32,000 nucleotides of DNA, from NCBI RefSeq assembly GCF_001652585.1, contig NZ_LWLG01000007.1, forward strand, positions 50,498 through 82,497, read 5' to 3'. This DNA is from Thermosulfurimonas dismutans (GTDB taxonomy: Bacteria; Desulfobacterota; Thermodesulfobacteria; Thermodesulfobacteriales; Thermodesulfobacteriaceae). The notes under the pieces were generated by a model that was given only the letters and a program-made list of their open reading frames with translations, made no database searches and had not been told where the DNA came from. A program made the translations under genes and the position numbers. Every line of letters begins with the position of its first letter. The first letter of the stretch is position 1. Below are positions 10,733-32,000 of the stretch, in pieces.

Positions 10733-11622
10733 TGCAAGCTGAAATTGTGGCCTTTCTGGAATACCTGACCCTAGAAAGGAATCTCTCCGAGAACACCCTG
10801 CAATCATATGCCCGGGATCTTGGGGATTTCAAAGAGTTTCTCGAAAAAGAAGGGATAGACGACCTCAAGGAAGTCTCGATAGAGACGATACTTCTCTTTC
10901 TAGAGAGCTTAAAAAGACGAAAGCTCTCTTCCTCAAGTGTGGCTCGAAAACTCTCGGCCTTGAGGAGTTTTTTTCGATTTCTTGAACTGGAGAAAGGTTT
11001 CACCAACAACCCTCTGCTTTTGGTAGAAAGCCCCAAACTCCCTCAGCGATTGCCCAAGGTACTTACTATAAATGAGGTCGAAAGGCTACTTTCCGCTCCT
11101 GACACTTCGACCCCCCGAGGTTTGAGAGACAAAGCCATGCTTGAGACCCTTTATGCTACCGGTCTTCGTGTCTCGGAACTGGTAGCCCTTACTTTCTCTC
11201 AGCTCAATCTTTCGGCAGGCTTCGTGCGAGTCTTTGGCAAAGGCTCCAAAGAGAGACTGGTCCCACTAGGAGACTTTGCCCGAGAATATCTGGAACGCTA
11301 TATCCGGGAGGCTCGTCCTAAACTCCTTTCAGGACGCTCTGACCCTCCTCAGGTCTTCCTAAACCGCTACGGGAAACCCCTTACTCGACAGCGTTTCTGG
11401 CAGATTATCAAAGATTATGCCCGCAAAGTGGGTATAGATACCGAAATCTCCCCTCATGTTTTGCGGCATTCCTTCGCCACCCATCTACTTGAAGGAGGAG
11501 CGGATTTACGAGCTGTCCAGATGATGTTGGGGCATGCCAGTCTTTCCACCACGCAGATTTACACCCATCTTGATCTCAAAAATCTCCGAAAAATACATGA
11601 AAAACATCACCCTCGAGGCTAA
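10732..11622 (+). CDS. xerD: Tyrosine recombinase XerD (chromosome dimer resolution)
   Basis: 296 aa. The N-terminus FLEYLTLERNLSENTLQSYARDL is XerD-like. The catalytic C-terminus reads RHSFATHLLEGGADLRAVQMMLGHASLSTTQIYTH. Its start overlaps the upstream stop in TAATG. Confidence 0.85.
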   Translation: MQAEIVAFLEYLTLERNLSENTLQSYARDLGDFKEFLEKEGIDDLKEVSIETILLFLESLKRRKLSSSSVARKLSALRSFFRFLELEKGFTNNPLLLVESPKLPQRLPKVLTINEVERLLSAPDTSTPRGLRDKAMLETLYATGLRVSELVALTFSQLNLSAGFVRVFGKGSKERLVPLGDFAREYLERYIREARPKLLSGRSDPPQVFLNRYGKPLTRQRFWQIIKDYARKVGIDTEISPHVLRHSFATHLLEGGADLRAVQMMLGHASLSTTQIYTHLDLKNLRKIHEKHHPRG

Positions 11623-12838
11623 GACCTTTCCTTTTAAGCGTTTCATTGTCTTTACAGGCTGGGCGGAAACCCTATCTAGGGCCGCGGAGATAGCTGAAGA
11701 ACTCAAACTCGCAGTTTATGTAGTAGGCGGACCGGTCAGGGATTTTTTTTTGGAAAAACCCGTCAAGGACCTCGATCTCGTAGTAGAGGGTGAGGCTGAA
11801 GAATACGCTCGGGCCCTAAGCCGTGCCCTTTCTGGAGAAATCAAGGCTCGGTCTCCTTTCCTCACATATAAAATTGTTTTTCCCGGAGGAGAGTTGGATC
11901 TCGTAACCGCTCGCAAAGAGGTTTATCCCCGGCCGGCGGCCCTCCCAAAGGTCTCCCCGGGGAGCATCTCGGAGGACCTCTACCGTCGAGATTTCACCAT
12001 AAACGCTATGGCTGTGGGACTTTCAGGGCCTTTCAAGGAAAAGCTCCTTGATCCCTTCGGAGGCCTCTTTGACCTCGAGAGCGGCCTTATACGGGTTCTT
12101 CATATGAATTCCTTTGTGGACGATCCTACTCGTATTTTTCGGGCCGCCCGTTATGCCGTGCGTTTCGAGTTCGATCTGGCTAAGGAAACTATAGGAGCCC
12201 TAGGAAGGGCCTGGACTCAGGATGCCTTAAATCTCCTTACCTCAGCTCGTATCCGTGGAGAACTCCTGCGCGTGCTCTCTGAGAGAGCTCCCGAAAGGGT
12301 TATTTTGTGTCTCGAGAGTCTAGGGGTACTCCAGGCTTTGGGTCTTCCTGAACCCCCCGCTTTCCTAGAAAAAAGCTTAAAAATCATGAATGAGAAGACC
12401 TCGGCCAAAGTCCTTCTGAAAGGTCTCATCCTAAGTTTAACTCGGGCTGAAGCGGCTCTTTCCCAAAAACTAGGACTTTCAGAAAAAGAAGCCCTGGAGT
12501 TTCAAGGCGAGTGGCTAAAATTGCAAGAACTTTTACCCAACATATTGGCCGCTACCAAACCTAGCCAAAGATTTAGGCTTCTTTCGGGTTTTTCTCTCCC
12601 TGTCCTCATAGCCACTGCAAGTGTTGAAAAGGACTTTGGAGAACGATTAAAGGAATTTTTGGCCTTAAAAGAAGTGAAACCTCATCTCACCGGAGAAGAC
12701 CTCAAAGTTCTGGGCATCCCTCCCGGCCCTCAGATGAGGAAAATCCTACAAAATCTCCTTTATGCCCGTCTTGACGGAAAGGTTAGTAGCCGGGAAGAGG
12801 AACTAGCCTTGGTTGGCCGCCTATTGAAAAAATGTTAG
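11597..12838 (+). CDS. cca: CCA-adding enzyme / poly(A) polymerase family nucleotidyltransferase
   Basis: Head-domain motif VVGGPVRDFFL...DLDLVV and RDFTINAM. The track ORF starts at 11534 inside xerD. The ATG at 11597 (MKNITLE...) is the more plausible start. Confidence 0.75.
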   Translation: MKNITLEAKTFPFKRFIVFTGWAETLSRAAEIAEELKLAVYVVGGPVRDFFLEKPVKDLDLVVEGEAEEYARALSRALSGEIKARSPFLTYKIVFPGGELDLVTARKEVYPRPAALPKVSPGSISEDLYRRDFTINAMAVGLSGPFKEKLLDPFGGLFDLESGLIRVLHMNSFVDDPTRIFRAARYAVRFEFDLAKETIGALGRAWTQDALNLLTSARIRGELLRVLSERAPERVILCLESLGVLQALGLPEPPAFLEKSLKIMNEKTSAKVLLKGLILSLTRAEAALSQKLGLSEKEALEFQGEWLKLQELLPNILAATKPSQRFRLLSGFSLPVLIATASVEKDFGERLKEFLALKEVKPHLTGEDLKVLGIPPGPQMRKILQNLLYARLDGKVSSREEELALVGRLLKKC

Positions 12839-13497
12839 ATTTCGGATTTATGATCTTATCCCGTATCGGCGAATTTCTAATTATTCTCCCGGCCTTACTG
12901 GCAGCCATCGTGTTCCATGAGCTGGCTCACGGCTGGGTGGCCTGGCGCTTAGGAGATCCTACGGCCAAGGCCGCCGGACGCCTCAGCCTGAACCCCTTGA
13001 AACACATGGATCCTATAGGCACTTTGGTCCTGTTTCTGACTCAGGCCATAGGTTGGGCTAAACCCGTACCGGTAAATCCGACTTACTTTCGAAACCCCAG
13101 GCAGGATATGATGTTGGTAGGCCTGGCCGGTCCGGTAGCCAATTTCATTCTGGCTTTCGGCATGGCTTTCCTCTACCGAATCCTGCCGCATTTCCTCTCT
13201 GGTATGTATCCCCTTCTTGGTCCTCTCACCCTAGATTTTGGGAAGATTGTTTCAACCATGCTTTATATAGGAGTTCAAATCAACATAGGTTTAGCCCTAT
13301 TCAACCTTCTTCCGATACCGCCTCTGGATGGGAGTCGTATTCTGGCTGGAATACTTCCTTCTCGTCTGGCCTATATCTACCTTCGCTATGAATATTTGGG
13401 TTTTATATTTCTGGTTGCTCTCGTCTTTACAGGCCTGGTCGGAAAAATTATACTCCCGGTGATTATAACTCTTACGAGGTTGTTTCTCGGAGGTTAG
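12832..13497 (+). CDS. Site-2 protease family (M50) membrane metalloprotease
   Basis: 221 aa, multi-TM. Contains the HELAHG zinc motif and the NLLPIPPLDG motif. Confidence 0.75.
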   Translation: MLDFGFMILSRIGEFLIILPALLAAIVFHELAHGWVAWRLGDPTAKAAGRLSLNPLKHMDPIGTLVLFLTQAIGWAKPVPVNPTYFRNPRQDMMLVGLAGPVANFILAFGMAFLYRILPHFLSGMYPLLGPLTLDFGKIVSTMLYIGVQINIGLALFNLLPIPPLDGSRILAGILPSRLAYIYLRYEYLGFIFLVALVFTGLVGKIILPVIITLTRLFLGG

Positions 13498-19643: not shown

Positions 19644-20807
19644 CTATTTTTCGAAACCTGCAAGCTCTTTGATCTTTTCTACCATATCCAGACGTTCCCA
19701 GGTGAAATCCGGATCCGGACGTCCAAAGTGCCCGTAACAGGCAGTTTTCCGGAAGATCGGCCGACGCATATTGAGATATTCAATCATTTCTCGCGGACGA
19801 AAATCGAATAGTTCTTTTATGATTTCAACGATCCTTTCTATCGGTATGGTATTAGTACCATAAGTCTGTACATTTATGGCCAGAGGCTCTGGGACCCCAA
19901 TAGCATAAGCCACCTGCACCTCAAGTTCCCGGGCCACACCGGCGGCCACCATATTCTTGGCCACGTAGCGCGCATAATAAGAAGGAGTGCGGTCCACCTT
20001 GGTAGGATCTTTACCTGAGAAAGCTCCTCCTCCGTGATGTCCCCGACCGCCATAGGTATCTACAATGATCTTACGGCCTGTCATACCGCAGTCCGCAAGG
20101 GGACCTCCGATCACAAAGCGTCCGGTAGTATTCACCAAAAACTTGGTTTCGGAAGTAAGATGTTCCGGTGCCACCACCTTTTTGATAACCTCCTCTACGA
20201 TGGCCTCCTTGAGCTCTTTGTATTCAACCCAAGGTTCATGCTGGGCCGCAACCACCACCGTGTGGACTGCTACCGGCCTCCGATCTTCGTATTGAATCGT
20301 GACTTGAGTCTTCCCATCAGGTCGCAGAAAAGGAAGGATGCCCTTCTTCCTCACTTCGGCCAAACGCATGGCCAAACGATGAGCATACCAGATAGGCATA
20401 GGCATATAATCGGGGGTCTCATCGCAGGCGTAGCCGAACATAAGGCCTTGGTCTCCGGCCCCGATTTCCTCGCCCCGGTCAACCCCCATGGCAATGTCCG
20501 GACTCTGACGATCGATACTGGTTAGAACTGCACAAGTCTGCCAGTCAAAACCGAGATCCGAGTGATTGTAACCGATCTCTTTGACTACCCCGCGGGCAAT
20601 GGTGGCGTAGTCCACCCGGGCCTCGGTGGTAATCTCTCCGGCGATAAGGATCATACCGGTATTGACCAAGGTCTCACAGGCCACCCTGGCATAAGGGTCC
20701 TTTTCCAAGATAGCATCCAAGATAGCGTCTGAAATTTGATCCGCAACTTTATCGGGATGACCTTCCGTAACCGATTCAGAGGTAAAAAGAAAATTGGAGA
20801 GCCCCAT
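19644..20807 (-). CDS. metK: S-adenosylmethionine synthetase
   Basis: 387 aa. Motifs [23 protein letters not shown] and [20 protein letters not shown]. Confidence 0.97.
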
Positions 20808-20887
20808 TCCTTGACCTCCTTTTAGATCTCAGGGTTTACCTAAACCGGATTTAGGAAGATTTGTCAAGCAAATAAACAAATAAAAAA

Positions 20888-20913
20888 TGGCGTCCCCGGC
20901 GGGATTCGAACCC
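20888..20913 (-). other. Orphan tRNA 3'-end fragment (tRNA-Glu-like) with encoded CCA; possible att-site remnant
   Basis: The minus strand reads GGGTTCGAATCCCGCCGGGGACGCCA. This covers the T-loop TTCGAAT, the 3' T-stem, the 7-nt acceptor 3' strand, discriminator G and CCA, followed by TTTTTT. No matching 5' acceptor strand (GTCCCCG), D arm or anticodon arm lies upstream. Confidence 0.6.
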
Positions 20914-21071
20914 TAAAATATCCTATATTTCGTACAGATTTTGCAAGAAAGTCAAAGAAATGTCAAGTCCGCATGGAAAAATTCCCGAGAAAAAGATATA
21001 AATAATTCTTGACCTTAATGAAAGATCCGGTGTAGACCATACAAAAGTGGTCGAAAAACACGGGGGCCCTG

Positions 21072-22496
21072 ATGAAGAAAGAACCTCCCAAAACTAAGAT
21101 TATCGGCACCATCGGGCCGGCCTCAGCCTCCCGAAAGGTCCTCCAGCAGATGATCCAGGCGGGGATGAGTATTGCCCGCCTCAATCTCGCTCACGGAACC
21201 CCCGAACTTCACGAACAATACATCGCCCTGGTGCGGGCTGCGGCCCGGACGGCAGGACGAAAGGTGGCCATCATGGCCGATCTTCCCGGCCCCAAGATCC
21301 GGGTAGGTGTCCTTCCAGAGGAACCCCTGGAACTCAAAAAGGGAGCCCGGATCTTCCTAGTTCCTCACGAGCGCACTAACGATCCCCGGACCATCCCCAT
21401 ACCCCTACCCGGTCTTCTGGAGATCCTGCGCCCTAAACATTCCGTCTATCTCAACGACGGTCTCATCCAGCTCATGGTGGAGGAGGTCCTGCGGGATAAG
21501 GCCCGGGCCAGGGTGGTCGTGGGAGGGGAACTCTTTTCGCACAAGGGGGTAAACTTCCCGGGAATAGATCTGGGGCTTTCCGCCTTCACCGAGGAGGATC
21601 AGCGCCTCATGTCTTTTGCCCTGGCCCACGGGGTTGAGGCCATAAGTCTTTCCTTTGTGGAAGGCCCGGAAGAAATACGCAAAGCCCGGGAATACGCCCG
21701 CTCTCTTGGATATTCTCCGTTTATCATCGCCAAGATCGAACGCGCCCAGGCAGTGAAAAACTTTTCCGCCATCCTGGAAGAGGCCGACGGGATCATGATC
21801 GCCCGCGGAGATCTGGGAGTCGAGATTCCCATCGAGGAGATAGCCGTGGTTCAAAAGTCCCTCATAGAAAAGGCTGCTCTTGCCGGAAAGGTGGTCATCA
21901 CCGCCACGCAGATGCTTAAGTCCATGACGCACAATCGGCGCCCCACCCGGGCCGAGGTCACGGACGTGGCCAATGCCATCCTGGATGGAACGGACTGTCT
22001 CATGCTTTCCGAAGAAACCGCCGCCGGGCTCTATCCCGTGGAAGCGGTAAAGATGATGGCCAAAATCGCCATAGTGACCGAGAAGGAAAGGAAATACTTC
22101 CCGGTTCGCGAAAACCTCCTGGCCTCTTTTCACAAGGGAAAGATCAGCCTGGATGATGTCCTTTCGCTGGATGTTTTTACCACCGTGGAGCATCTGAAGG
22201 TCAAGGCGATAATCATTCCCACCGATACCGGGGCTACGGCCAGGAAGGTGGCCCGCTTTCGTCTACCGGTCTGGATCTACGCCTTTAGCCCCCACGAATC
22301 CACCTGTGAGCGTTTGCTCTTTTATTACGGAGTGAGACCGGCCCTTCTTACCGAAAGTCTCAGCGATTGGCAGGGGTTTGCTCTCCACTGGTTACGAAAG
22401 AACATCCTCAAAGAAGGACTCGTCGTCTCCCTGCAACGCACCTTCCTCGGCTCCCACAAGACTTACCGCCTGGAACTAATCGAAGTGGAAAATTGA
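21072..22496 (+). CDS. pyk: Pyruvate kinase
   Basis: 474 aa. The N-terminus reads KTKIIGTIGPAS...MSIARLNLAHG. Also contains MIARGDLGVEIP and the MLSEETAAG-type motif. Confidence 0.95.
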   Translation: MKKEPPKTKIIGTIGPASASRKVLQQMIQAGMSIARLNLAHGTPELHEQYIALVRAAARTAGRKVAIMADLPGPKIRVGVLPEEPLELKKGARIFLVPHERTNDPRTIPIPLPGLLEILRPKHSVYLNDGLIQLMVEEVLRDKARARVVVGGELFSHKGVNFPGIDLGLSAFTEEDQRLMSFALAHGVEAISLSFVEGPEEIRKAREYARSLGYSPFIIAKIERAQAVKNFSAILEEADGIMIARGDLGVEIPIEEIAVVQKSLIEKAALAGKVVITATQMLKSMTHNRRPTRAEVTDVANAILDGTDCLMLSEETAAGLYPVEAVKMMAKIAIVTEKERKYFPVRENLLASFHKGKISLDDVLSLDVFTTVEHLKVKAIIIPTDTGATARKVARFRLPVWIYAFSPHESTCERLLFYYGVRPALLTESLSDWQGFALHWLRKNILKEGLVVSLQRTFLGSHKTYRLELIEVEN

Positions 22497-22530
22497 AGGC
22501 GTCCCGCGATGGCCTTGAATTCCGCTTTTT

Positions 22531-22821
22531 TCAAAAAATCATATGATCTCCTTCGGGAAGACGGGTATGTTTACCATACCCCAGATGGATTACTGGGTGC
22601 CGACAGGTCTCGCAGAGACGGTAATAACGTACTTTATCCTCCAGAGCATCAATGATCCCTTCCACCGCTTGGCGCATGACCACAAACTCTTCGGGCGTTA
22701 AACGGCATTCAAAAACGCTGTAGAGGACCCGAATCCCGAAGTCCTCCATTACGCGGGCTACTTTTCTCAGCCTTTTCTCGTCGGCAATGTCGTAGCAGAC
22801 CAGGTAATAGTTTCCGCTCAC
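22531..22821 (-). CDS. cas2: CRISPR-associated endoribonuclease Cas2
   Basis: 96 aa with a GTG start overlapping the upstream stop (GTGA). Contains YLVCYDI (beta1 with catalytic Asp), SVFEC and DKVRYYRL. Confidence 0.9.
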
Positions 22822-23776
22822 AGGATCAATTCCTCCTCGGGTTCCTCTGCGAAATATACCGGGCCGGAGAATTCAAGATTCTTGAGACACTTCCGGCAGA
22901 GGCGGTAGATCCGCACCCGATCCTCCGTGCGCTTGATGAAATCCGCAAGCCAGGAAATAACCTCCTCCAGTTCCTTCTGCGTGAGCCAGCACTCGAACAC
23001 GCTCTTCTGAACCGGTTTTCCATAGTCCTTCAGGAATTTGTGAACCCTCTGTACCGGACGCCATTCCTCCATGAGATCCAGCACCAGGGAAGGTTTTCCG
23101 TAATCCGGGGCGTGCAGGAAACCCAGATAGGGGTCGAGCCCTGCGGTTTCCACCAGGCTCCAGATCCGGGAAAGGAGCAGGGTGTAACCTAGGGAAAGCA
23201 GGGGTTTACAGGATCCCTAGGTGGGCGGCGGGTACGTTCCCGGAATTCAAAACCGGAGCGTTTTGAAAGTATTCCCAGCCCTTCGAAATAATGCCGGGAG
23301 GCCATGCCCTCGAGACCCAAGATCTCGTCAATATCTTTGGCCTTTTCAAGTTCGGTAAGAACGCGTTTAAGGTGAAATATCGGACCTTCCAGGGCCGTTT
23401 CCCCTAGCCTTCGTTTCTGACGGGCCAGGTATTCCCGCTGATTGTGAATTTTTCCGTGTACGAAAGCCCTGGCCAGTTCGAGCCGTTTCCACAGGTTATG
23501 GAAGCTCTGAAACTGGCTTAACCGCAGTTCTATGTTCTTCCCGAGCGGAGGCGAAAGTTTGTCGAGATATTTTCCGGAAAGGGTGAGGAAGTGAACCTCT
23601 ATTCCGCGTTTGAGCAAGGCCTGGAGGGCCGGGGCAGTAAAGTTTACCCTCCCGAAGACCACCACCTGATCCACTTCCGCTAGCCTGACCTCCTTTTTCT
23701 TCTGACCGATTTCCAGCTTGAGCCTTTCTCCTTCCCGCGAGACCTTTAACCCCTGTTCGGTGAGATAAAGGATCAT
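22818..23776 (-). pseudogene. cas1: cas1, frameshifted, with its C-terminal ~80 aa replaced in frame by a Cas2-like segment (cas1-cas2' chimera)
   Basis: The N-terminal 195 codons (MILYLTEQGLKV...LGLEGMASRHYF...RRPPRDPVN) end at a stop at 23189-23191. The canonical continuation [30 protein letters not shown]...LDLMEEWRP lies in another frame, consistent with one base missing near G4 23201-23204. From about 23054 the sequence turns Cas2-like ([22 protein letters not shown]...DRVRIYRLC). Confidence 0.8.
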
Positions 23777-23800
23777 TTTTATCCCCCATCATCATTAAAG

Positions 23801-24145
23801 GTCGCAATCCCTTCTTAGTGAGGGAAAGTTTTCTCATACATCGAGGATATGAAAGTCGCTCAGCAATTCGCTCGTATGTCGCAATCCCTTCTTAGAGAGG
23901 GAAAGTTTTCTCACTTGCCCTTGAATTTCTAGATGTTTCCACGGCTCTAGGGTCGCAATCCCTTCTTAGTGAGGGAAAGTTTTCTCACTCTTACCGCTTT
24001 GATGTCAAAACCGTTTAGGAGGTGAAACCAGTCGCAATCCCTTCTTAGTGAGGGAAGGTTTTCTCACACTCCTATAGCTGAAGGTAAGCCTGGCTATGTT
24101 CTTACTGAGTCGCAATCCCTTCTTAGTGAGGGAAAGTTTTCTCAC
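23801..24145 (-). CRISPR. CRISPR array of 5 x 37-nt repeats and 4 spacers (40, 37, 42, 41 nt), transcribed on the minus strand
   Basis: Repeats are at 23801-23837, 23878-23914, 23952-23988, 24031-24067 and 24109-24145. The plus-strand consensus is GTCGCAATCCCTTCTTAGTGAGGGAAAGTTTTCTCAC. The reverse complement, GTGAGAAAACTTTCCCTCACTAAGAAGGGATTGCGAC, ends in ATTGCGAC, an 8-nt Cas6-type 5' handle preceded by a TCCCT/AGGGA stem. Variant bases occur at 23837, 23896 and 24057. Confidence 0.95.
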
Positions 24146-24218
24146 TGCATATTTTATAACTTAAGAATCTACAGTATCTTTTAAAGCCGTAAATGATAAG
24201 GATTGAAAATGAATGTTT
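24146..24218 (-). promoter_or_regulatory. Putative CRISPR leader (AT-rich) between the terminator and the first repeat
   Basis: A 73-nt AT-rich segment abuts the consensus repeat on the side predicted by the handle orientation. Candidate TTTACG-16 nt-TAGATT promoter elements are present on the minus strand but are weak matches. Confidence 0.5.
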
Positions 24219-24258
24219 AAAAAAGTGGCTCCCCCGATATCTTCGCTGGGGGAGCCAC
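24219..24258 (-). terminator. Rho-independent terminator insulating the upstream cas/accessory operon from the CRISPR leader
   Basis: Perfect 11-bp GC-rich stem: GTGGCTCCCCC (24225-24235) pairs with GGGGGAGCCAC (24248-24258). The loop is 12 nt, and on the minus strand the hairpin is followed by T6 (24224-24219). Confidence 0.8.
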
Positions 24259-24445
24259 AACATAACAGCCCATAAAATCGTCCAAAATAGATACTGGCAA
24301 TCCTTTACTTAAAAGCACCCTAAAAATGACGATATCAAGCAGGCTTATGAATCCCTCACCAAAAAGGGCACCCTTATCGCCAGTTTTTCAAAGAGCTGAA
24401 TCCTCTTATCCTTTAAAATCAAAAATTTTCGGAAGTGTAAAGGGG

Positions 24446-26026
24446 CTATGCGGATCGAGGGCGAACGATAATTTCCTCGCCCTCTAAGGAGAAAATATAA
24501 TCTCCGACCCGAAGTCTTTGGGGATTTCTTCGGAAATGTCTCCGAAGCTCGTGTTCCACATACCGGAGCCTCTCGCGCAGGTGAAGGTAAACCCGTCCCA
24601 ATTCTGCAGGACGACTATAGTGAAGGGTGAGACGGTCCTCTAAAGTAGGCACCAGTTCGGGATCTATGTGAAGCAGGGGTGAGGGATAGCGTCCCTTCAA
24701 AGCCTCTCCGAAAACGCATCCGCAGGGACGATCCAGAACAAAATCCCGAAACCACATCTCAAGCTTGGCGCAACTTATGGGATTCCTGGGTATTCCCTCG
24801 AGCATTCTTTCTATTCTGTGATAGCTATAATCCGGCGTGCCGGAAAGGATGTGGTGCAACAGCTCACGGCCATTCCTTAGAAAACCCACCGAGAGCATTA
24901 CGACCAGTTTTTCCTCCCGAGAAAGATGTTTTCCGGCCTCGGCTCGCCGGAAAACAAAGTCCAGTACCGGACACGCCCGGCGAAGCTTTAATAATTCAGG
25001 AGGATCTTTCCGGGAGACAGATACCGGCATGGATTTTCGGCAAAAACTTTTTAAGGTTTCAAAAGGTAGTTCAAAGCCCTTCTCCCGCCAACCTACACCC
25101 TCGCCCCTGGTTCCAATTTCGTAGGAATGAAATATTCCTTCACTGGGAAAGGGGAGTCTTTCTTTCAGCGTCTCAAAAAATCGCCTGACCCAGAGGAAAT
25201 AAATCGGCTCGGAGAAAAAGAACCACAACCGGTAGCGAAACGGGCTAACCCGTTCCAGCGCACCCTCAAGCCCCCACCCCCAGGCACCACACCGAAAGGG
25301 CCTCCCGCTTCACAGCTTCAGCCTTAATGGCCAGTAAGCCTCGATTGCGCCGGTTTCGGTCAAGCTCTCGCTCCGGAAGGGCTATAACGAAATAAGCCCC
25401 GTGAAGTTTGTTTTCTTCAGTAAGAGGGAAGTAGATGAGATAGGTCCGCCCCAGAAGGTGCTGTGAAAGTTTTTCCAGAGAAGGGGCTCCCTCTTTGATT
25501 ACCAGAGCCGTCTTTCCGTAAGAGGTAAGATGTAACTCGGCATGAAGGGGTCTTCCACGAAAAAGTCTTCTAAGGGGCTCAGTTCCCGAGGACCGAGATT
25601 TGGAGGATAATAGCGCAACGGAGTCTCGGTAGAAACGCTCTCAAGAGGGCCGGCCACCACGGCGGCCGCTCCGGGACGGCCGAGTTCCAAGAACACCCGG
25701 GCCAGCTTTTGCCGCACGGTTTGCGAATCGGCCAGGCGCAGAACCCGCTGAAATAGCGTGGCCGCCCGACGAAGTTCCCCAAGTTCGTAGGCCACTTCGG
25801 CCCGGGCCAGGAGATAGCGGGACTGATCGGGATCGCGCGAGATGGCAAGATCGTAACACTCCGCCGCCTGGGGCTTTAACCCCAAGGTTTCACAGAGAGC
25901 ACCCCACCGGAAGTACTCCTCGGCGGTCTGCCCGGGACGGAGACGGTGACGGAGGATCAAATCGCGGGCCTTGCCGTCTTGACCTTCGGAAAGGAATTTT
26001 TTGGCCTGATCAAGAAATTTGTTCAC
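24446..26026 (-). pseudogene. TPR-repeat N-terminus fused to a degenerate archaeo-eukaryotic primase (PrimPol/CAPP-like) domain; split into 3 frames by two homopolymer indels
   Basis: Piece A is 26026-25499, with TPR-like repeats. Piece B is open 25640-25269 and has no ATG, GTG or TTG (LFRGRPLHA...HLLGRTYLIYFPL...AYFVIALPE...). Piece C is open from 25309, with the track ORF at 25228-24446 (ALERVSPFRYRLWFFFSEPI...SYEIG...ELPF...Cys-containing C-terminal domain). The joins are restored by +1 T at 25560-25564 and -1 G at 25271-25281. The AEP assignment is from remembered motif order only. Confidence 0.5.
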
Positions 26027-26035
26027 GAATAGGCT

Positions 26036-27310
26036 TTATCTTAGAGATTTTAAGATAAAATTCTGTACATTATTCTTTTTTTCCTTTGAATATCTTATCT
26101 TCAAGCCTTCTTCCGTTTGACGGAGTTCGACGGCGTTCTTTTCCAGACCTCCATGAGCAAAAAAGTTTCTCGGATTTGGAGAATCTGGTTTCCGGCCCTC
26201 AATTTCAGCTAAAAGTTTCCAGTCGAAAGGAAAACCTTTAATACTTTTTAAATTATGCATTTCCGTCCCCAGAATACTTCGGAAAATATTATTTTTCCAA
26301 AAGACCTTTTTGGCGATGCTTTCAAGTTTATGTAGAAAAATCTCCTCTTGGCGGGTCTCTAAAAGATTCTCCTTTTCAAAAAACTTCAGCAAAAGCCAGA
26401 CCAAGGTTAAAACCCGAAATAGAGGAGTTAAACGCGCCCGACGCGTGAGGCGAAGACGGCCTCCTTCTTTGCGGATCTTTATTTCTTTCTCGTAAATGTT
26501 CAGGGCCTCTTTTAAGTGAGAAAAAACTTCTTCCGCGGGAACGAAGAAGGTGGTCAGCATTAGGGGCAAGCCGTAAACCATCCCTCCTAAAAAAGTCAAG
26601 ATTTCTTTAAGCCGGGGTTTCCCTACAACTTTTAATTTTTGTCCATTTTCGTCTACCACCAGCTTCTCAAAAAACCGGGAGCTTACATTTACCTCATACG
26701 GACTAAGCGCAGGGAAACGCGGAAGTTCTTCTATTTCCTCCACCACATGAAGGGTGAGAACAGTTTCGGGACCGCCGGAGACGAAAGGATCGGCATTATA
26801 GGCCACAAATTTTATCGGGGCAAAAAAGCTTACTACCTGAAGGATTTCCTTTACCGCTCGATAAGTGAGGACCGGCATAAAGTTAAGGCCGTGGGTAAGG
26901 TCGAGGTGAACTTCTTTGAAATCGCTTTCATTAAGAAGTCTGGCCAATTCATAGAGGAGGCGGTAATAGTAATCCAAAACCTCTCCCTCAAAAACGCCGT
27001 TTTTGAAATATCCCGTTCCGGGAAGGACCAAAATATCTATTTTCGTTTTGTCCAAGGGAATATGGCAATCTTTCAGAAAATTAAAGATTTTGTCCCTTAC
27101 CGCGGCCTTTGCCTCGGCGTAGTTCGTATTTTCGCGTAGAGAGTCCTTATCCACCAGGGAATCCGCTACCAGGATCACTATGTATTCGGGGTTTAGTGCC
27201 TCAAGGAGGACCTTAAGAGAAGTTTTGGATACGGATTCCACTTCCCCGAAACGATAGGTAACCTCATTCCAGCCAAAAGGATTTCCCCAGGGGGCGATGA
27301 GGAGTTTCAT
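26036..27310 (-). CDS. csx1: Csx1-family CARF-HEPN ribonuclease (DxTHG-motif protein)
   Basis: 424 aa. The N-terminus MKLLIAPWGNP... has a CARF-type fold pattern. Also contains the HLDLTHGLNF (DxTHG) signature and the C-terminal HEPN motif RNFFAHGG (R-x4-H). Confidence 0.8.
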   Translation of the reverse strand: MKLLIAPWGNPFGWNEVTYRFGEVESVSKTSLKVLLEALNPEYIVILVADSLVDKDSLRENTNYAEAKAAVRDKIFNFLKDCHIPLDKTKIDILVLPGTGYFKNGVFEGEVLDYYYRLLYELARLLNESDFKEVHLDLTHGLNFMPVLTYRAVKEILQVVSFFAPIKFVAYNADPFVSGGPETVLTLHVVEEIEELPRFPALSPYEVNVSSRFFEKLVVDENGQKLKVVGKPRLKEILTFLGGMVYGLPLMLTTFFVPAEEVFSHLKEALNIYEKEIKIRKEGGRLRLTRRARLTPLFRVLTLVWLLLKFFEKENLLETRQEEIFLHKLESIAKKVFWKNNIFRSILGTEMHNLKSIKGFPFDWKLLAEIEGRKPDSPNPRNFFAHGGLEKNAVELRQTEEGLKIRYSKEKKNNVQNFILKSLR

Positions 27311-27333
27311 GGTTCAAACCTCTAGCTTTTGCA

Positions 27334-28452
27334 TCACAAGTGTTTTTCCAGCTTCTTTATCTCAAAGCGTTTATGGCCATGACAAACGCCAAAAATGCGG
27401 CGAGCATCCCGATCGCTCCAGGCATAAATTTCGTGGGTGCAGTCGGAAACGGGTTTACCTTTCAAAGGGTGACAGTTGAGGGATCCGGGATTGTGATGCC
27501 CTTCTCGCTCCAGGTGTAGGGCCAGCTCATCCATCCGTTTGTTGATTTCATAACATCGATCAGGCGGCAAATCGTTTACATCTTTTGCAAATTCTTCAGA
27601 AAAAGTGATACGCTCCGAAGGCGGCTCCCAGAACCTCTCTTGGTAAATTTTCTGCTTGCACTGCTGCCAGATGAGCTCACCCCACGGGGAAAGCGTAATC
27701 TCTTCCCCCAGAAGCAATAAAAAAGAATCGGGGATTGGACGACAAACATCGGGCTTTACTGGAAGCCCCAGGGCCAGCCGCCGCCAAACCGTAAGGTTTT
27801 TCCTGATGGAAGGCAAAACATCCAAGACCAGGGGCAAACGCGGAATGCGTAAAAGCTCCTCGCTTGTTTCAAAAATATAGACCGCTTCATCCGCGTAAAA
27901 TTGGGAAAGCGTTTGCAAAATACCCTGAATGCTTTTGAATCCTCCGGTTAAATTAAAAATTATCCTAAAACCTTTATCCTTATAGCCGGGGAGACTCTCA
28001 TGTAAACGGCGGACAAGCTCGCTTACCGCACAGTGAAAGTTATCAAGGCTGTCGGTGCGAAGACCGGCAATGTCATCCCAAACCTGGACGTTTGTAACTC
28101 CCTGATACCGCAACCAGGTCTCCACCATACGGGCCGTTTCCCTTCCGAGCCAGGTATCCGTGGCAATAAGAATATGTATGTCCTTTGATCCTGAGGAAAT
28201 ATTTCTCTGATAAATCCTGAATATTCCGTTTATTTCGGCGGAAATTCCGGATGCTTCCTCCGGGGAAAGTTGAAGCAAAAGTTCTCTCCGTTCCTTGAGG
28301 TGCTTTTTGAGTAATTCCCCTTCGGGACCAGAGATCGGCTCCGGGTTGTTTGCGTGTTTAAAAATCAAGGGACGCAATTTATTATCGACTCTATTGGTCA
28401 AGATACTGGTCCCACAGGGAGATAAGATGAGTTTTGTTCTTTTTTTACTCAT
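27334..28452 (-). CDS. CARF domain fused to a RelE/ParE-like mRNA interferase domain (Cami1-like type III ancillary effector)
   Basis: 372 aa. CARF signatures are LILSPCGTSILTN and IFNLTGGFKS (APE2256-like). The C-terminal ~90 aa, FAKDVNDLPPD...INKRMDELA...LNCHPLKGKPVSDCTHEIYAWSDRDARRIFGVCHGHKRFEIKKLEKH, follows the RelE/ParE toxin pattern. Confidence 0.65.
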   Translation of the reverse strand: MSKKRTKLILSPCGTSILTNRVDNKLRPLIFKHANNPEPISGPEGELLKKHLKERRELLLQLSPEEASGISAEINGIFRIYQRNISSGSKDIHILIATDTWLGRETARMVETWLRYQGVTNVQVWDDIAGLRTDSLDNFHCAVSELVRRLHESLPGYKDKGFRIIFNLTGGFKSIQGILQTLSQFYADEAVYIFETSEELLRIPRLPLVLDVLPSIRKNLTVWRRLALGLPVKPDVCRPIPDSFLLLLGEEITLSPWGELIWQQCKQKIYQERFWEPPSERITFSEEFAKDVNDLPPDRCYEINKRMDELALHLEREGHHNPGSLNCHPLKGKPVSDCTHEIYAWSDRDARRIFGVCHGHKRFEIKKLEKHL

Positions 28453-28888
28453 AGAGGGACACTTTTAGCGTAAATTTTTGAACAAAAGGGTTCCTCTTTA
28501 GTTCTTCCCGGGTGTAACCAAAAAGATCACAGGGAAGCCCCACTTCGGCAAAATAGTCAAGGTAAGGGCGTTCGGGAAACGGTCCTTCGGCCCTGTTAAG
28601 CACCAACAAGATAACTGCATCGCTTCCGGGGATGGCCCTGCCTTCGGCAAGGGAGCCGAAAAGGCGTACCTCTTCCACCTCTTCGTGATCTCCAAGGAGC
28701 CTGCGTGCGGCCTCCCTGAGTCTGCGCAGGACTTCTTCACAATGGAGCCAAAATATCTTTACAGAACCGTATGATTTCTCCTGCACCACGGACGGCTTCA
28801 CGGGCGTCCTACCTTTCATTTCCCAAGCGGCGTTTTCGAGATCTTTTTCGGCTTGTCTTAACCAATCAGCGCTTCTTTCAGGCATCAC
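28445..28888 (-). CDS. HEPN N-terminal fragment fused to a minimal nucleotidyltransferase (MNT) domain
   Basis: Residues ~6-45 (ADWLRQAEKDLENAAWEMKG...VVQEKSYGSVK) look like HEPN helices 1-2, and no R-x4-6-H motif follows. Residues ~60-147 contain LFGSLAEGRAIPGSDAVILLV, an MNT GS...SD motif that lacks the second Asp. The gene overlaps the CARF-RelE start by 8 nt. Confidence 0.6.
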   Translation of the reverse strand: MMPERSADWLRQAEKDLENAAWEMKGRTPVKPSVVQEKSYGSVKIFWLHCEEVLRRLREAARRLLGDHEEVEEVRLFGSLAEGRAIPGSDAVILLVLNRAEGPFPERPYLDYFAEVGLPCDLFGYTREELKRNPFVQKFTLKVSLYE

Positions 28889-28946: not shown

Positions 28947-30179
28947 TTACAAAACTTTTAACTTTAAGCTATCTTTTTCCTCAGCAATAATTACTTTTTC
29001 CTGGCCTTTAGCAGCAATAGTTTCTCCAATTTCGAACCATTTAACCCAGCCAAGAGGCCAAAATTTATTTTGTTGAATTTTCACCAGTCTTCGACTTTTA
29101 GGAGCCATAATCTTTCCTCGATCGTGCCGGAGACGATTCCTGATTTTCTGCCGTAACTCTTCAGGAAGCAACATAAAAATGGTGGTGCTGAGCAGTCCTC
29201 CGCCCCAACCCAGCCGAAACATTTTTCCCGGATAGGGCTTTGCGTAATAATTAGTGGGACCATTACTAAACACCTTTCTTTCGTAATTCCAGAAATCTCT
29301 AAAAAATTCCTGAAGCGTAATCAAAAATTCTTCTATAGTTTTAGGATAAATATCAAAAGGTATTTGCGGGGAGACGTTTTTCTGGAAGTGAGAAAGTAAT
29401 GTCCGGTCAAGAAGAAGTTCTAATTCGTAAAGGTAGCCCTTTGGCAAAGCCTCCACAAATAAAGGCCTTTCTTTAGGAAAAAATTTTCCTCTATGCCAGG
29501 AAAATATTTGAACTTCAAAAAGTCCGGTAGTTCGCTGAAATAAGGACTTGACATCTCTAATTTTTAAAATTCGTAAGTAGTCCGTATGAGGATCGTTAGT
29601 CTGCTCATTTAATCTGAAATTTTGTAGCCAGAAATTTATAATTTTCTTGAAGGGCTCTCTTTTTGAAATTTGATTTTGGCGTAGCACTTGATATATCTTA
29701 TTCAGTAATTTATTTTCGAAAACTTCGGAATCTTCGTATTTTATCTGTTTCAGAATTCTATAAAGTAAAGCCGTCCGGAAAACACCTTTTATACTCGAAG
29801 CCGGAATAAAAGGAATACCAAAAGCATCCCTTATTTGAGATTTAAATTGCTTAAAAGAGCGATTAGTTTTCAGTTCTATTTTTGAGTAAGATATATTAGA
29901 GACTAAATTTTCGTCAATATTTTCTATATATTTCTTAAGAAACTCAACAATGTTTGGTTTTTCTCCTTGTAGCGCCCATGAAACAAATTCATTTATTAGG
30001 TTTTTATTGGCTAAAAATTTACTAAATTTATTTTCGGAAAGAAAATAAACATGATTTTCTACTTTTAAGTATTCAAAAGGCCCGACAAAGAGATTTCTAT
30101 TACTAATATGGAGGGGAGTGTCAATTTGTAAAGCTATCTTCTTTCTTTCCACTATTTTATTTTCAACCATTTTCATCAA
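28947..30179 (-). CDS. csm5: Type III-A RAMP protein Csm5
   Basis: 410 aa. RAMP motif [16 protein letters not shown] and Gly-rich loop [11 protein letters not shown]. The probable ATG at 30176 overlaps the csm4 stop (TGATG). Confidence 0.75.
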
Positions 30180-31156
30180 AATGGAATGGTTAAAGCTAAT
30201 CCATAGCGATATATCTTATGAGACAAACTTCCTAAAGTTACATCTTCAGGGGTAATATCTACTATAGTTCCGTTAAAACTCTCTTTGAGAACCGAACCCT
30301 CCTTTAAAAAGCGTATTCCCTTTCGTTTTAGAGGAAGAGCTATACGGCCGGAGGTTATCCATCCTCTGGAAATGCCGATTTTGTAAGCTTCAAGCCCGTT
30401 TTCTAATCTCGGGATCTCTTCCCCGGAAGGGATAAGCCGAGAAATAAGCACCTTGCAAGGACTTGAGTGGCTTAGCAATTCTTCAAATTGTTTTTTAAGC
30501 TCTTCCTCCGGTTCTTCTACCTCAAAAACTCCGCAACCGTAGGTCCTTTCCCCTCCCAATCCGATTTCCCCTAAAAGGGCAAGACCTTTCATAAAAAGGT
30601 TTACGCCTTCCTGATTTCCAACCACCACTCCCCAAAGTCCCCCTTCTTTCGCATATTGGATATATCCTTCGTGAAAGAGATTGCTTTCCAGACCTTCTCT
30701 ATCCAGAGCTACACGGGGGCGAATAATTCTTTTATATGCCCGTTGATAACGTTCTTTCTGGATAGTGTAAGCAGTCTCAATTATTGAAGAAGAAACTTCT
30801 CCTTTTAACCATTCTTTATAAAGATTTAAAGGTACCCAGTCCGTCTTTTTGAAGATCTTGAAAATATTAGACCGTTCTTCCTTGGCAGGCACAGCGAAAT
30901 GAGGCTTAGGAAGAAAATAGCAGGTTTGATAATATATAAACAGGCTTGATATTCGAAACGGGGGACTTTTTAAAAATTTCTCGCATATTTCGGAAGCCTT
31001 TTCTATTCCCCAGAAAGCGCTTACCGCATTTAGCCAAGCCGAAAACAAAGTATCCGACCCTACCCACTCGGAAACACTTTCTAAATCTATTCCAGTCTCC
31101 CCGAAATGCGTAAATCCTTTAAATTTCAACTTGAAAATTTTATATTTCATAACCAA
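30176..31156 (-). CDS. csm4: Type III-A RAMP protein Csm4 (Cas5-like subunit)
   Basis: 326 aa. The N-terminus reads [15 protein letters not shown]...[13 protein letters not shown], and the Gly-rich motif is [14 protein letters not shown]. The ATG at 31150 is an alternative to the TTG at 31156. Either start overlaps the PIN gene stop. Confidence 0.8.
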
Positions 31157-31583
31157 CTTTTATCATCAATTCTTGAGTAGAGATTACATCCTCAAACCCT
31201 TTTTCCTTTAAACCTTTGAATAGTTTTTTATCTCCAGTCCATAGAAGCGCTTTAAGCTCTATAGCCAAAGCTACAAACGGAGTATCGCTTTCGTCTATCT
31301 CTTTACAGAGTTGCCAAGCTTTTTGATAAGCTTCTTTAGAAATATATCTTTCATTTACAAATTCGATCTCTTTTATGATTTGATGTACAAAATATTCTAA
31401 TTGCTCAGGTTCAAATTTAGTATGTTTTATAATCTTACTTTTAAGACTCAGCAACTCTGTAATAGCAGAATTGCAGGAGAAAAGATCAAAAATTTGTGAT
31501 GTTATTATTTGTCGTATGTGACCTGTTGCTGACAATAAAGCCGAAAATATTATATTGGTATCCACTACAATTTTAATCTTCAC
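31140..31583 (-). CDS. PIN-domain toxin (VapC-like, PIN_3-type)
   Basis: 147 aa with a GTG start. The acidic residue series is IVVDTNI, ITELL, DESDTPFVALA and WTGDKKL. Confidence 0.8.
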   Translation of the reverse strand: MKIKIVVDTNIIFSALLSATGHIRQIITSQIFDLFSCNSAITELLSLKSKIIKHTKFEPEQLEYFVHQIIKEIEFVNERYISKEAYQKAWQLCKEIDESDTPFVALAIELKALLWTGDKKLFKGLKEKGFEDVISTQELMIKVGYEI

Positions 31584-31812
31584 TTAATATGCCTTTCTCT
31601 ATTAAAATTTTCTTTCCTTCTTTTTCCCACCATGCTCTTTTAGCCTGATCAGCTAAATCATTTATCTCTTTTTCTGATAATTTTATTTGTGTTGCTATTT
31701 CTTCCATTTCTAAACGCTTTAACAACTGTCTGATTACCTCCTTGGGAACAGTTTTGGGTATTTCTATAATAAAACTCTCTGCATTTTCTTTAAATTTAAT
31801 ATTTAAAGACAT
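31573..31812 (-). CDS. Putative antitoxin cognate to the PIN toxin
   Basis: The 79-aa ORF overlaps the PIN start by 11 nt, the classic antitoxin-toxin arrangement. Its SD (GGAGG) is formed by the last codons of csm3. No family was recognised. Confidence 0.5.
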   Translation of the reverse strand: MSLNIKFKENAESFIIEIPKTVPKEVIRQLLKRLEMEEIATQIKLSEKEINDLADQAKRAWWEKEGKKILIEKGILSED

Positions 31813-31813
31813 T

Positions 31814-32000
31814 TTAACCTCCAGAATTTTTAAATTTTTGATGAATATTTTCTATAATTCTACCAAACTCTTTCAGTTCAACTTTTTCATGGTTTTCTAT
31901 TTGAAGTTCCTTAACTTCACCGTTTTCAAATTTTTTTCCGGTAATTTTTATATCGTGGATTTTTACCTGGCCGTAACCCCTAGAGCCGTGTCCCCCCAGA
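31814..32000 (-). CDS. csm3: Type III-A RAMP protein Csm3, C-terminal 61 codons (5' part beyond window)
   Basis: My own translation of the minus strand from 31999 gives LGGHGSRGYGQVKIHDIKITGKKFENGEVKEL...KFKNSGG, with a stop at 31816-31814. GG-GSRGYG is the conserved C-terminal Csm3 motif. The ORF is absent from the track because it has no start in the window. Confidence 0.7.
   Translation of the reverse strand, partial: LGGHGSRGYGQVKIHDIKITGKKFENGEVKELQIENHEKVELKEFGRIIENIHQKFKNSGG

Follow-up and report, generated by a model that had tools for sequence, protein, structure and literature searches.

A locus in Thermosulfurimonas dismutans raises the question of whether one cyclic oligoadenylate (cOA) signal, made by a type III CRISPR system, could feed two different RNA-degrading effectors that are encoded side by side. 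The stretch of DNA analyzed here, which we call the window, comprises 32,000 nucleotides (nt; positions 50,498 to 82,497 of contig NZ_LWLG01000007.1), and all coordinates below are counted from its first letter. Its minus strand carries two genes with ATG starts, one at 27334..28452 for a 372-amino acid CARF7-RelE (Cami1-type) effector and the other, csx1, at 26036..27310 for a 424-amino acid CARF-HEPN ribonuclease of the MJ1666 type (CARF9). An earlier reading of the letters alone, referred to below as the original prediction, had described these open reading frames (ORFs) as a CARF-RelE fusion next to a CARF-HEPN Csx1; both ORFs are where it placed them, on the minus strand, and all the motifs that it quoted occur in the translations. 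The two genes run in the same direction with a gap of 23 nt, and an AGAGG ribosome-binding site precedes csx1. Taken as a whole, the arrangement is best explained, with a probability that we put at roughly 80%, as two cOA sensors that answer to one signal, most likely cyclic tetra-adenylate (cA4), through two RNA-degrading arms, with the CARF7 domain as a timer. The analysis bases this reading on gene structure, family membership, domain folds, motif conservation, operon context, and the recurrence of such pairs. The identity of the ligand, the dependence on ribosomes, and the ring-nuclease activity are what we infer from characterized relatives.

The first of the two proteins belongs over its full length to a catalogued family, CARF7 CARF-RelE (Cami1-type), because a family profile matches it end to end, Cami1 is its best structural match, and its C-terminus is predicted to take a RelE fold. 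The profile is PDLC01934 (CARF7--CARF_RelE) of the PADLOC library, which includes profiles from the published CARF classification; it covers residues 6-372 of the protein and positions 2-358 of 359 in the profile (E 4.9e-120, 399 bits), and five more PADLOC CARF_RelE profiles also match. The CARF domain, approximately residues 1-210, is of the APE2256/CARF7 type, as seen from Pfam Cas_APE2256 (PF09651, 3.4e-29, residues 70-206) and from TIGR02619 (3.3e-13), and contains the motifs SPCGTSILTN (residues 11-20) and NLTGGFKS (167-174). It is followed by a winged helix-turn-helix (wHTH)-like middle region at approximately residues 213-272 and by the RelE-fold region at approximately residues 278-372, where HPLKG (328-332), HEIYAW (340-345), DARRIFGV (349-356), and FEIKKLEKH (363-371) are found. 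An AlphaFold2 model of the whole protein was built from an alignment with 48 homologues of full length, which are 41-83% identical and come from Thermodesulfobacteria, cyanobacteria, proteobacteria, Chloroflexi, and other groups; the model has a mean predicted local distance difference test (pLDDT) score of 93 and a predicted template modeling score of 0.86. When this model was compared with the PDB by Foldseek, the tool used for our fold comparisons, Cami1 came first (8PHJ chain X and 8PHB; E 1e-14, 386 aligned columns, 18-20% identity), and the Crn1-type ring nucleases Sis0811 and Sso1393 ranked next. A profile search of the PDB returned Sis0811 at 2.7e-16 and Cami1 at 2.4e-14.

The C-terminal domain is predicted from its modeled structure to have a RelE/ParE fold. 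Modeled alone with AlphaFold2, the last 98 residues reach a pLDDT of 90 and adopt a beta-alpha-alpha-beta-beta-beta topology. The top 17 PDB matches of this isolated domain are all RelE/ParE-superfamily toxins, and the toxins matched are Escherichia coli RelE, Mycobacterium tuberculosis RelE1, Methanocaldococcus jannaschii RelE, HigB2, YoeB, HigB1, ParE2, and BrnT (Foldseek probability 0.54-1.00, the first 13 scoring no lower than 0.92; TM score 0.40-0.66). The toxin fold that the original prediction had read from motifs in this region is thus found in the predicted structure, and its call of a CARF-RelE fusion holds for the protein as a whole, from the end-to-end profile to the Cami1 match and the RelE, HigB, YoeB, and ParE structures retrieved by the C-terminus. 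Eight positions of the domain, T339, H340, E341, A344, W345, D347, A350, and R352, are invariant in 48/48 homologues; such conservation across phyla argues for a selected function of the RelE-like domain.

The product of 26036..27310 is a canonical Csx1, with a nearly end-to-end match to the NCBIfam equivalog TIGR01897 (268.4 bits against a cutoff of 110, E 1.3e-79; residues 1-413, profile positions 1-415 of 417) and further matches to Pfam Csx1_CARF (9.6e-42) and Csx1_HEPN (2e-13), and PADLOC CARF9--CARF_HEPN covers it end to end at 2.1e-95. The closest solved structures are Csm6 6O6S and related entries (E 1.2e-41, residues 1-397). The DxTHG motif of the CARF ligand site reads DLTHG (residues 137-141; TIGR02549, 1.3e-7), with D137 and H140 kept in 56/56 homologues, and the HEPN motif RNFFAH (R381-x4-H386) retains R381 in 54 and H386 in 55 of the same 56. 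These profile, structure, and motif matches uphold the Csx1 call of the original prediction, and the searches it had proposed for the sensor sides of the two proteins both succeed, with Cas_APE2256 in the one and the DxTHG motif in the other. The profile E-values of both proteins are far too low to have arisen by chance. The gene already has an annotation in NCBI, where an entry with 100% identity to the protein is called CRISPR-associated CARF protein Csx1 [Thermosulfurimonas dismutans].

We propose the following course of events for the pair. Upon meeting target RNA, Cas10, encoded outside the window, would make cA4. Binding of cA4 to the dimeric CARF domain of Csx1 would switch on the HEPN ribonuclease (R381/H386), and free single-stranded RNA would be degraded. 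The same cA4 would bind the CARF7 domain of the Cami1-type protein, whereupon the RelE-fold domain would cut mRNA in the ribosomal A site and translation would stop. Slow cleavage of cA4 by the CARF7 domain would then time out, or reset, both the activity of the CARF-RelE protein itself and that of Csx1. Papers that cite the Cami1 work credit Cami1 with cA4 activation, ribosome-dependent mRNA cleavage in the A site, and capture of the L7/L12 stalk, and by analogy the CARF-RelE protein of the window may share these three traits. For Csx1, cA4-stimulated cleavage of single-stranded RNA is likewise to be expected from its relatives.

Do the two sensors respond to the same ring? Both most likely respond to cA4, as judged from their relatives. 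In a survey by Hoikkala et al. (2024, PMC11229360), Cami1, which has the same architecture as the CARF-RelE protein, is classed as cA4-activated and described as an A-site mRNA interferase, and the Csx1/Csm6 relatives of the window Csx1 are placed among the cA4-responsive, self-limiting CARF-HEPN enzymes (PMC9676260). The original prediction had offered as an alternative a response to two different ring sizes; Csx1 might then sense cA4 and the CARF-RelE protein cA6 or cA3, for instance, with two independently tuned responses. Several cOA species can indeed come from type III complexes, and the CARF domain of SyCsm6, the Synechocystis homologue treated below, is less specific than that of SyCsx1 in the cOAs that it degrades (PMC9676260). 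Against this alternative, Cami1 and the closest solved relative of Csx1 are both described as cA4-dependent, and the solved ribosome complex of Cami1 contains cA4. Moreover, Hoikkala et al. typed 1113 type III loci and found Cami1 in 135; in 54 of the loci it was accompanied by Csx1, a pairing more frequent than any other two-effector combination in their counts. Effectors that reside together usually share cA4, and effectors with different signals almost never co-occur (PMC11229360). We therefore regard two ring sizes as very improbable, while the idea of one signal with two RNA-directed arms, also put forward in the original prediction, coincides with the published view of such loci (PMC11229360).

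The timer in the one-signal reading concerns the fate of cA4. No dedicated ring nuclease is present in the visible locus, where we could account for every non-overlapping ORF of at least 50 amino acids from 22.4 to 32 kb, and to that extent the original prediction, which saw no such enzyme, stands. It overlooked the CARF7 domain itself. In a profile alignment, S16 of the CARF-RelE protein (G14-T15-S16, after beta-1) falls on S12 of Sis0811 and K173 (in the GGFK loop) on K169, the residues altered in the PDB mutants 7PQ6 (S12A) and 7PQA (S12G/K169G), and both S16 and K173 are invariant in the CARF-RelE family. Since this Crn1 catalytic Ser/Lys pair is kept, the CARF7 domain probably also degrades cA4 and acts as an off-switch. 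Intrinsic ring-nuclease activity is attributed to Cami1 by papers that cite it, and the Synechocystis homologue SyCsm6 (Sll7062) degrades cOAs and quenches the RNase of its neighbor SyCsx1, a cA4-dependent enzyme (Ding et al. 2022, PMC9676260).

These same facts open the way to a different interpretation, namely that the chief or sole role of the CARF-RelE protein is that of a ring nuclease switching Csx1 off, with the RelE-fold domain catalytically silent (a dimerization or ribosome-docking module, for example), which would leave one RNA-degrading arm and a timer. In addition to the kept Ser/Lys pair and the likeness of the CARF domain to the Crn1 enzymes Sis0811 and Sso1393, SyCsm6, which at 40.5% identity is the closest characterized homologue, was inactive as an RNase when assayed in vitro with free RNA (PMC9676260). 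Some homologues are named CRISPR system ring nuclease in UniRef, and there is a weak NCBIfam match to CRSPR_nucase. The assays of SyCsm6 were done on free RNA, where a ribosome-dependent RelE is inactive, as their authors note (PMC9676260). The eight invariant polar and aromatic residues, including the T-H-E triad and R352, exceed what a passive module would need, and Cami1, of the same architecture, is reported in papers citing it as both an active A-site interferase and a ring nuclease, so that the two roles are compatible. We consider a ring nuclease without a second arm to be unlikely.

Several observations nevertheless weigh against two RNA-degrading arms on one signal. The failure of SyCsm6 to cleave free RNA is one of them. 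The toxin assignment is another, because it is carried by structure and is barely visible to sequence comparison: the E-values of the isolated domain are modest, the best match having E 2.6e-3 at probability 1.00 and a TM score of 0.56-0.65, and a Pfam scan of the C-terminal 96 and 161 residues gave no match at E ≤ 10, so that the RelE/ParE family membership for which the original prediction had looked to a profile search was not recovered in that way. A phmmer search of the C-terminus against the PDB gave nothing but a chance match to a bacteriocin immunity protein, and a 28-sequence profile of the C-terminus found no relevant match there; among these 28 family members, one touches YafQ_toxin (1.1e-3) and one Gp49 (3e-3). 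The hhalign comparison of the C-terminal profile with approximate E. coli RelE and YafQ sequences was not significant, with short aligned pieces in register. Stalk capture and A-site cleavage may not transfer from Cami1, because the identity to it is 18-20%. The cyclase competence of this particular system is assumed, as Cas10 lies outside the window, and the decay of the neighboring adaptation genes, described below, makes activity of the locus as a whole uncertain.

The remoteness from Cami1 also suggested to us a more speculative possibility. Members of the family from the Thermodesulfobacteria clade carry extra histidines, H328, H358, H360, and H371, and in the window protein H328, H340, and H371 may correspond to H50, H63, and H87 of YafQ. 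Given approximately 19% identity to the solved Cami1, a RelE domain invisible to sequence profiles, the invariant T-H-E/W-x-D/R signature, and the extra histidines, this CARF7-RelE branch might use a YafQ/HigB-like histidine catalytic set, with a codon or substrate specificity or a ribosome engagement other than that of Cami1. It might at the same time be, in a thermophile, the principal timer of cA4 for the Csx1 encoded with it. We offer this as a doubtful but conceivable refinement.

How often does such a pair occur? We surveyed 85 loci with CARF-RelE relatives, made up of the window, 80 loci from contigs of one genome per species, three found by an exact-protein look-up, and the locus on the Synechocystis plasmid pSYSA; neighboring ORFs were clustered, and the cluster representatives were named by NCBIfam and Pfam. 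A second CARF effector lies within 5 kb in 19 of the 43 loci that have at least 3 kb on both sides. The partner is of the SyCsx1/TIGR02221 type in eight loci, an NE0113 Csm6 in five, Card1/Can2 in four, a TIGR02710 CARF-HEPN protein in two, and an MJ1666-type Csx1 in one, the window; the sum is 20 because one locus, L041, has partners of two types. The counts are approximate, since one locus is represented by two copies among those looked up. A search of the other 84 loci with the hidden Markov model of MJ1666-type Csx1 found no such neighbor, the partners there being other CARF effector types, and in this sample the combination of the CARF-RelE clade with an MJ1666-type Csx1 thus occurs in the window only. 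The general two-effector arrangement is common, and the exact type of partner varies. One of the looked-up loci, L001, has downstream of a 70%-identical CARF-RelE homologue a 439-amino acid gene (11533-12852, plus strand) without a Pfam match at E ≤ 0.01; its product clusters with SyCsx1 (hmmsearch E 6e-157), and members of that cluster match TIGR02221/DxTHG in NCBIfam. Because this protein is silent in Pfam yet belongs to the SyCsx1 cluster, Pfam seems to be without a model for the SyCsx1-like CARF-HEPN type.

The two genes supply the accessory effectors at the end of a type III-A (Csm) CRISPR operon, so that the type III context that is a feature of Cami1 family membership is present. The pair forms the 3' end of the operon; upstream on the same strand are csm5 (28947..30179, minus; a type III-A RAMP gene matching TIGR01899 at E 2e-30), csm4 (30176..31156, minus; a Cas5-like RAMP gene of type III-A matching TIGR01903 at E 4.1e-74 and Pfam Csm4_C), and approximately 61 codons from the 3' end of a Cas7/Csm3-like gene that runs off the window (31814..32000, minus). 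The translation of this 3' end has GGHGSRGYGQV toward its close and matches weakly the last 14 positions of TIGR02582 Csm3 (E 0.027) and cas7_csf2 (6.6e-4). Past position 32000 one would expect Cas10 and csm2; the Cas10 of a relative carries GGDD and HD motifs, which says nothing certain about this genome. On inspection, plus-strand ORFs opposite the two effector genes (e.g., 26639-27139) were set aside as antisense shadows, the effector genes themselves being well supported. Downstream of the pair are remnants of a gene for a primase-polymerase (PrimPol) with a TPR domain, then a CRISPR array, cas1 remnants, and an intact cas2 (22531-22821). The array (23801..24148), detected by a repeat search, has five repeats of approximately 36-40 nt with a period of 74-79 nt and the repeat core GTCGCAATCCCTTCTTAGTGAGGGAAAGTTTTCTCA, and sits between the PrimPol and cas1 remnants.

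The TPR-PrimPol gene (24446-26026, minus) looks like a pseudogene with three in-frame stop codons. An intact 572-amino acid orthologue from L001 aligns over its residues 3-569 in one frame (26017..24464) that contains the three stops, and the surviving ORF fragments are 25499-26026, with the TPR part, and 24446-25228, with the C-terminal part (NF040561, 2.5e-36); sequencing error or recoding may be alternatives to a pseudogene. The cas1 gene (22818-23776, minus) appears disrupted as well, with residues 1-192 at 23776-23204 and residues 204-243 in another frame at 23171-23052; the remnant runs straight into a Cas2-like segment (23060-22863), and the last approximately 95 residues of Cas1 are missing. 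The disruption of cas1 and the PrimPol remnants suggest that the adaptation module has decayed next to effector genes that are intact. One could go further and see in the whole locus a decaying remnant with both effector genes out of use, in keeping with the stops in the adjacent TPR-PrimPol, the frameshifted and truncated cas1, an array of five repeats only, and two inserts among the csm genes, a module with a PIN toxin and an MNT ORF that is degenerate. Both effector ORFs, however, are intact and full length and keep all residues that are invariant in their families, csm4 and csm5 are intact, and interference from existing spacers would still be possible without adaptation genes. A locus out of use is, in our judgment, extremely improbable.

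Other features of the operon were noted along the way. An MNT-like nucleotidyltransferase (NTase) ORF of 147 amino acids (28445..28888, minus; Pfam NTP_transf_2, PF01909, 1.2e-5) lies immediately upstream of the CARF-RelE gene, whose start overlaps its stop by 8 nt. Approximately 27 amino acids ahead of its NTase domain resemble the opening helix of a HEPN domain, and its motif is GSDAV in place of the usual GSxxD-x-D, with the second Asp absent; at the same position in L001, immediately upstream of the CARF-RelE gene, there is a pair of separate NTase and HEPN (NTase_sub_bind) genes. Between the Csm3-like 3' end and csm4 sit a PIN_2-domain toxin ORF (31140-31583, minus; PF10130, 1.7e-30) and, upstream of and overlapping it, a 79-amino acid ORF without a family match (31573-31812, minus). 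The latter may be the antitoxin of the PIN_2 toxin, and the two look like a toxin-antitoxin-like insertion in the csm operon. The G+C content, compared between 29000-32000 and 20000-26000, is 29-43% in csm5, csm4, and the PIN ORF, 45-50% in the CARF-RelE gene, 40-45% in csx1, and 52-58% in the PrimPol remnants and housekeeping genes (pyruvate kinase, metK, and ahcY). Such strong heterogeneity suggests that the locus is a mosaic, assembled horizontally.

The pairing, the view that one signal drives two arms, and self-limitation through CARF7 have all been described in the literature. As a discovery the locus carries little weight: Cami1-type proteins are established as cA4 effectors, as is Csx1, and work on a homologous pair from Synechocystis has been published (PMC9676260). 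What is gained is a confident annotation for a gene labeled in databases only as putative CRISPR-associated protein or ring nuclease, together with the indication that, where loci seem to have no ring nuclease, the CARF7 domain itself is likely to be one. The thermophilic orthologue pair could suit biochemical work on how two RNases, one dependent on ribosomes and the other independent of them, share a single cA4 pool and how that pool is timed between them.

Set against known systems, the CARF-RelE protein shares with stand-alone type II toxins of the RelE, HigB, YoeB, and YafQ kinds the beta-alpha-alpha-beta-beta-beta fold and a pattern of L-K-G, strand, R-I-F/Y, and strand; unlike them, it has no antitoxin, and the fused CARF sensor exerts control. 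With the Crn1 ring nucleases (Sis0811, PDB 7PQ2; Sso1393, PDB 3QYF) it has in common the CARF7 fold, the wHTH, and the catalytic Ser/Lys (S16, K173), whereas the Crn1 proteins are without the C-terminal RelE-fold domain. The window Csx1 resembles the MJ1666-family Csx1/Csm6 proteins (6O6S and related entries, deposited as Csm6; 4EOG) in its DxTHG CARF motif and Rx4H HEPN motif, at approximately 30-35% identity.

The Synechocystis sp. PCC 6803 pair follows the same logic of two effectors, a Csx1 beside a CARF-RelE protein in a type III locus. Its Sll7062 is of the same CARF7-RelE family, with the 40.5% identity extending over 98% of the window protein, and on pSYSA the gene adjoins slr7061 (SyCsx1, CARF-HEPN) at the end of a type III-D operon. 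The Synechocystis genes are divergent, belong to a III-D system, and are plasmid-borne, whereas those of the window share one direction and close a III-A csm operon, and SyCsx1 is of the TIGR02221/DxTHG type, unlike the MJ1666/TIGR01897 type of the window Csx1. The comparison with Cami1, a CARF-RelE protein reportedly described by Mogila and co-workers in Science in 2023, is made with PDB entries 8PHB, the apo form, and 8PHJ, the cA4-bound form in complex with the 70S ribosome. The two proteins differ in that they are 18-20% identical, their RelE domains do not align by sequence, and the window protein has 372 residues and Cami1 has 406. They are alike in their three parts (an APE2256/CARF7 sensor, a wHTH-like linker, and a C-terminal RelE-fold domain), in a sequence match over the CARF domain and linker (E 2e-5 with the single sequence, 2.4e-14 with the profile), and in the place of the gene in a type III CRISPR operon.

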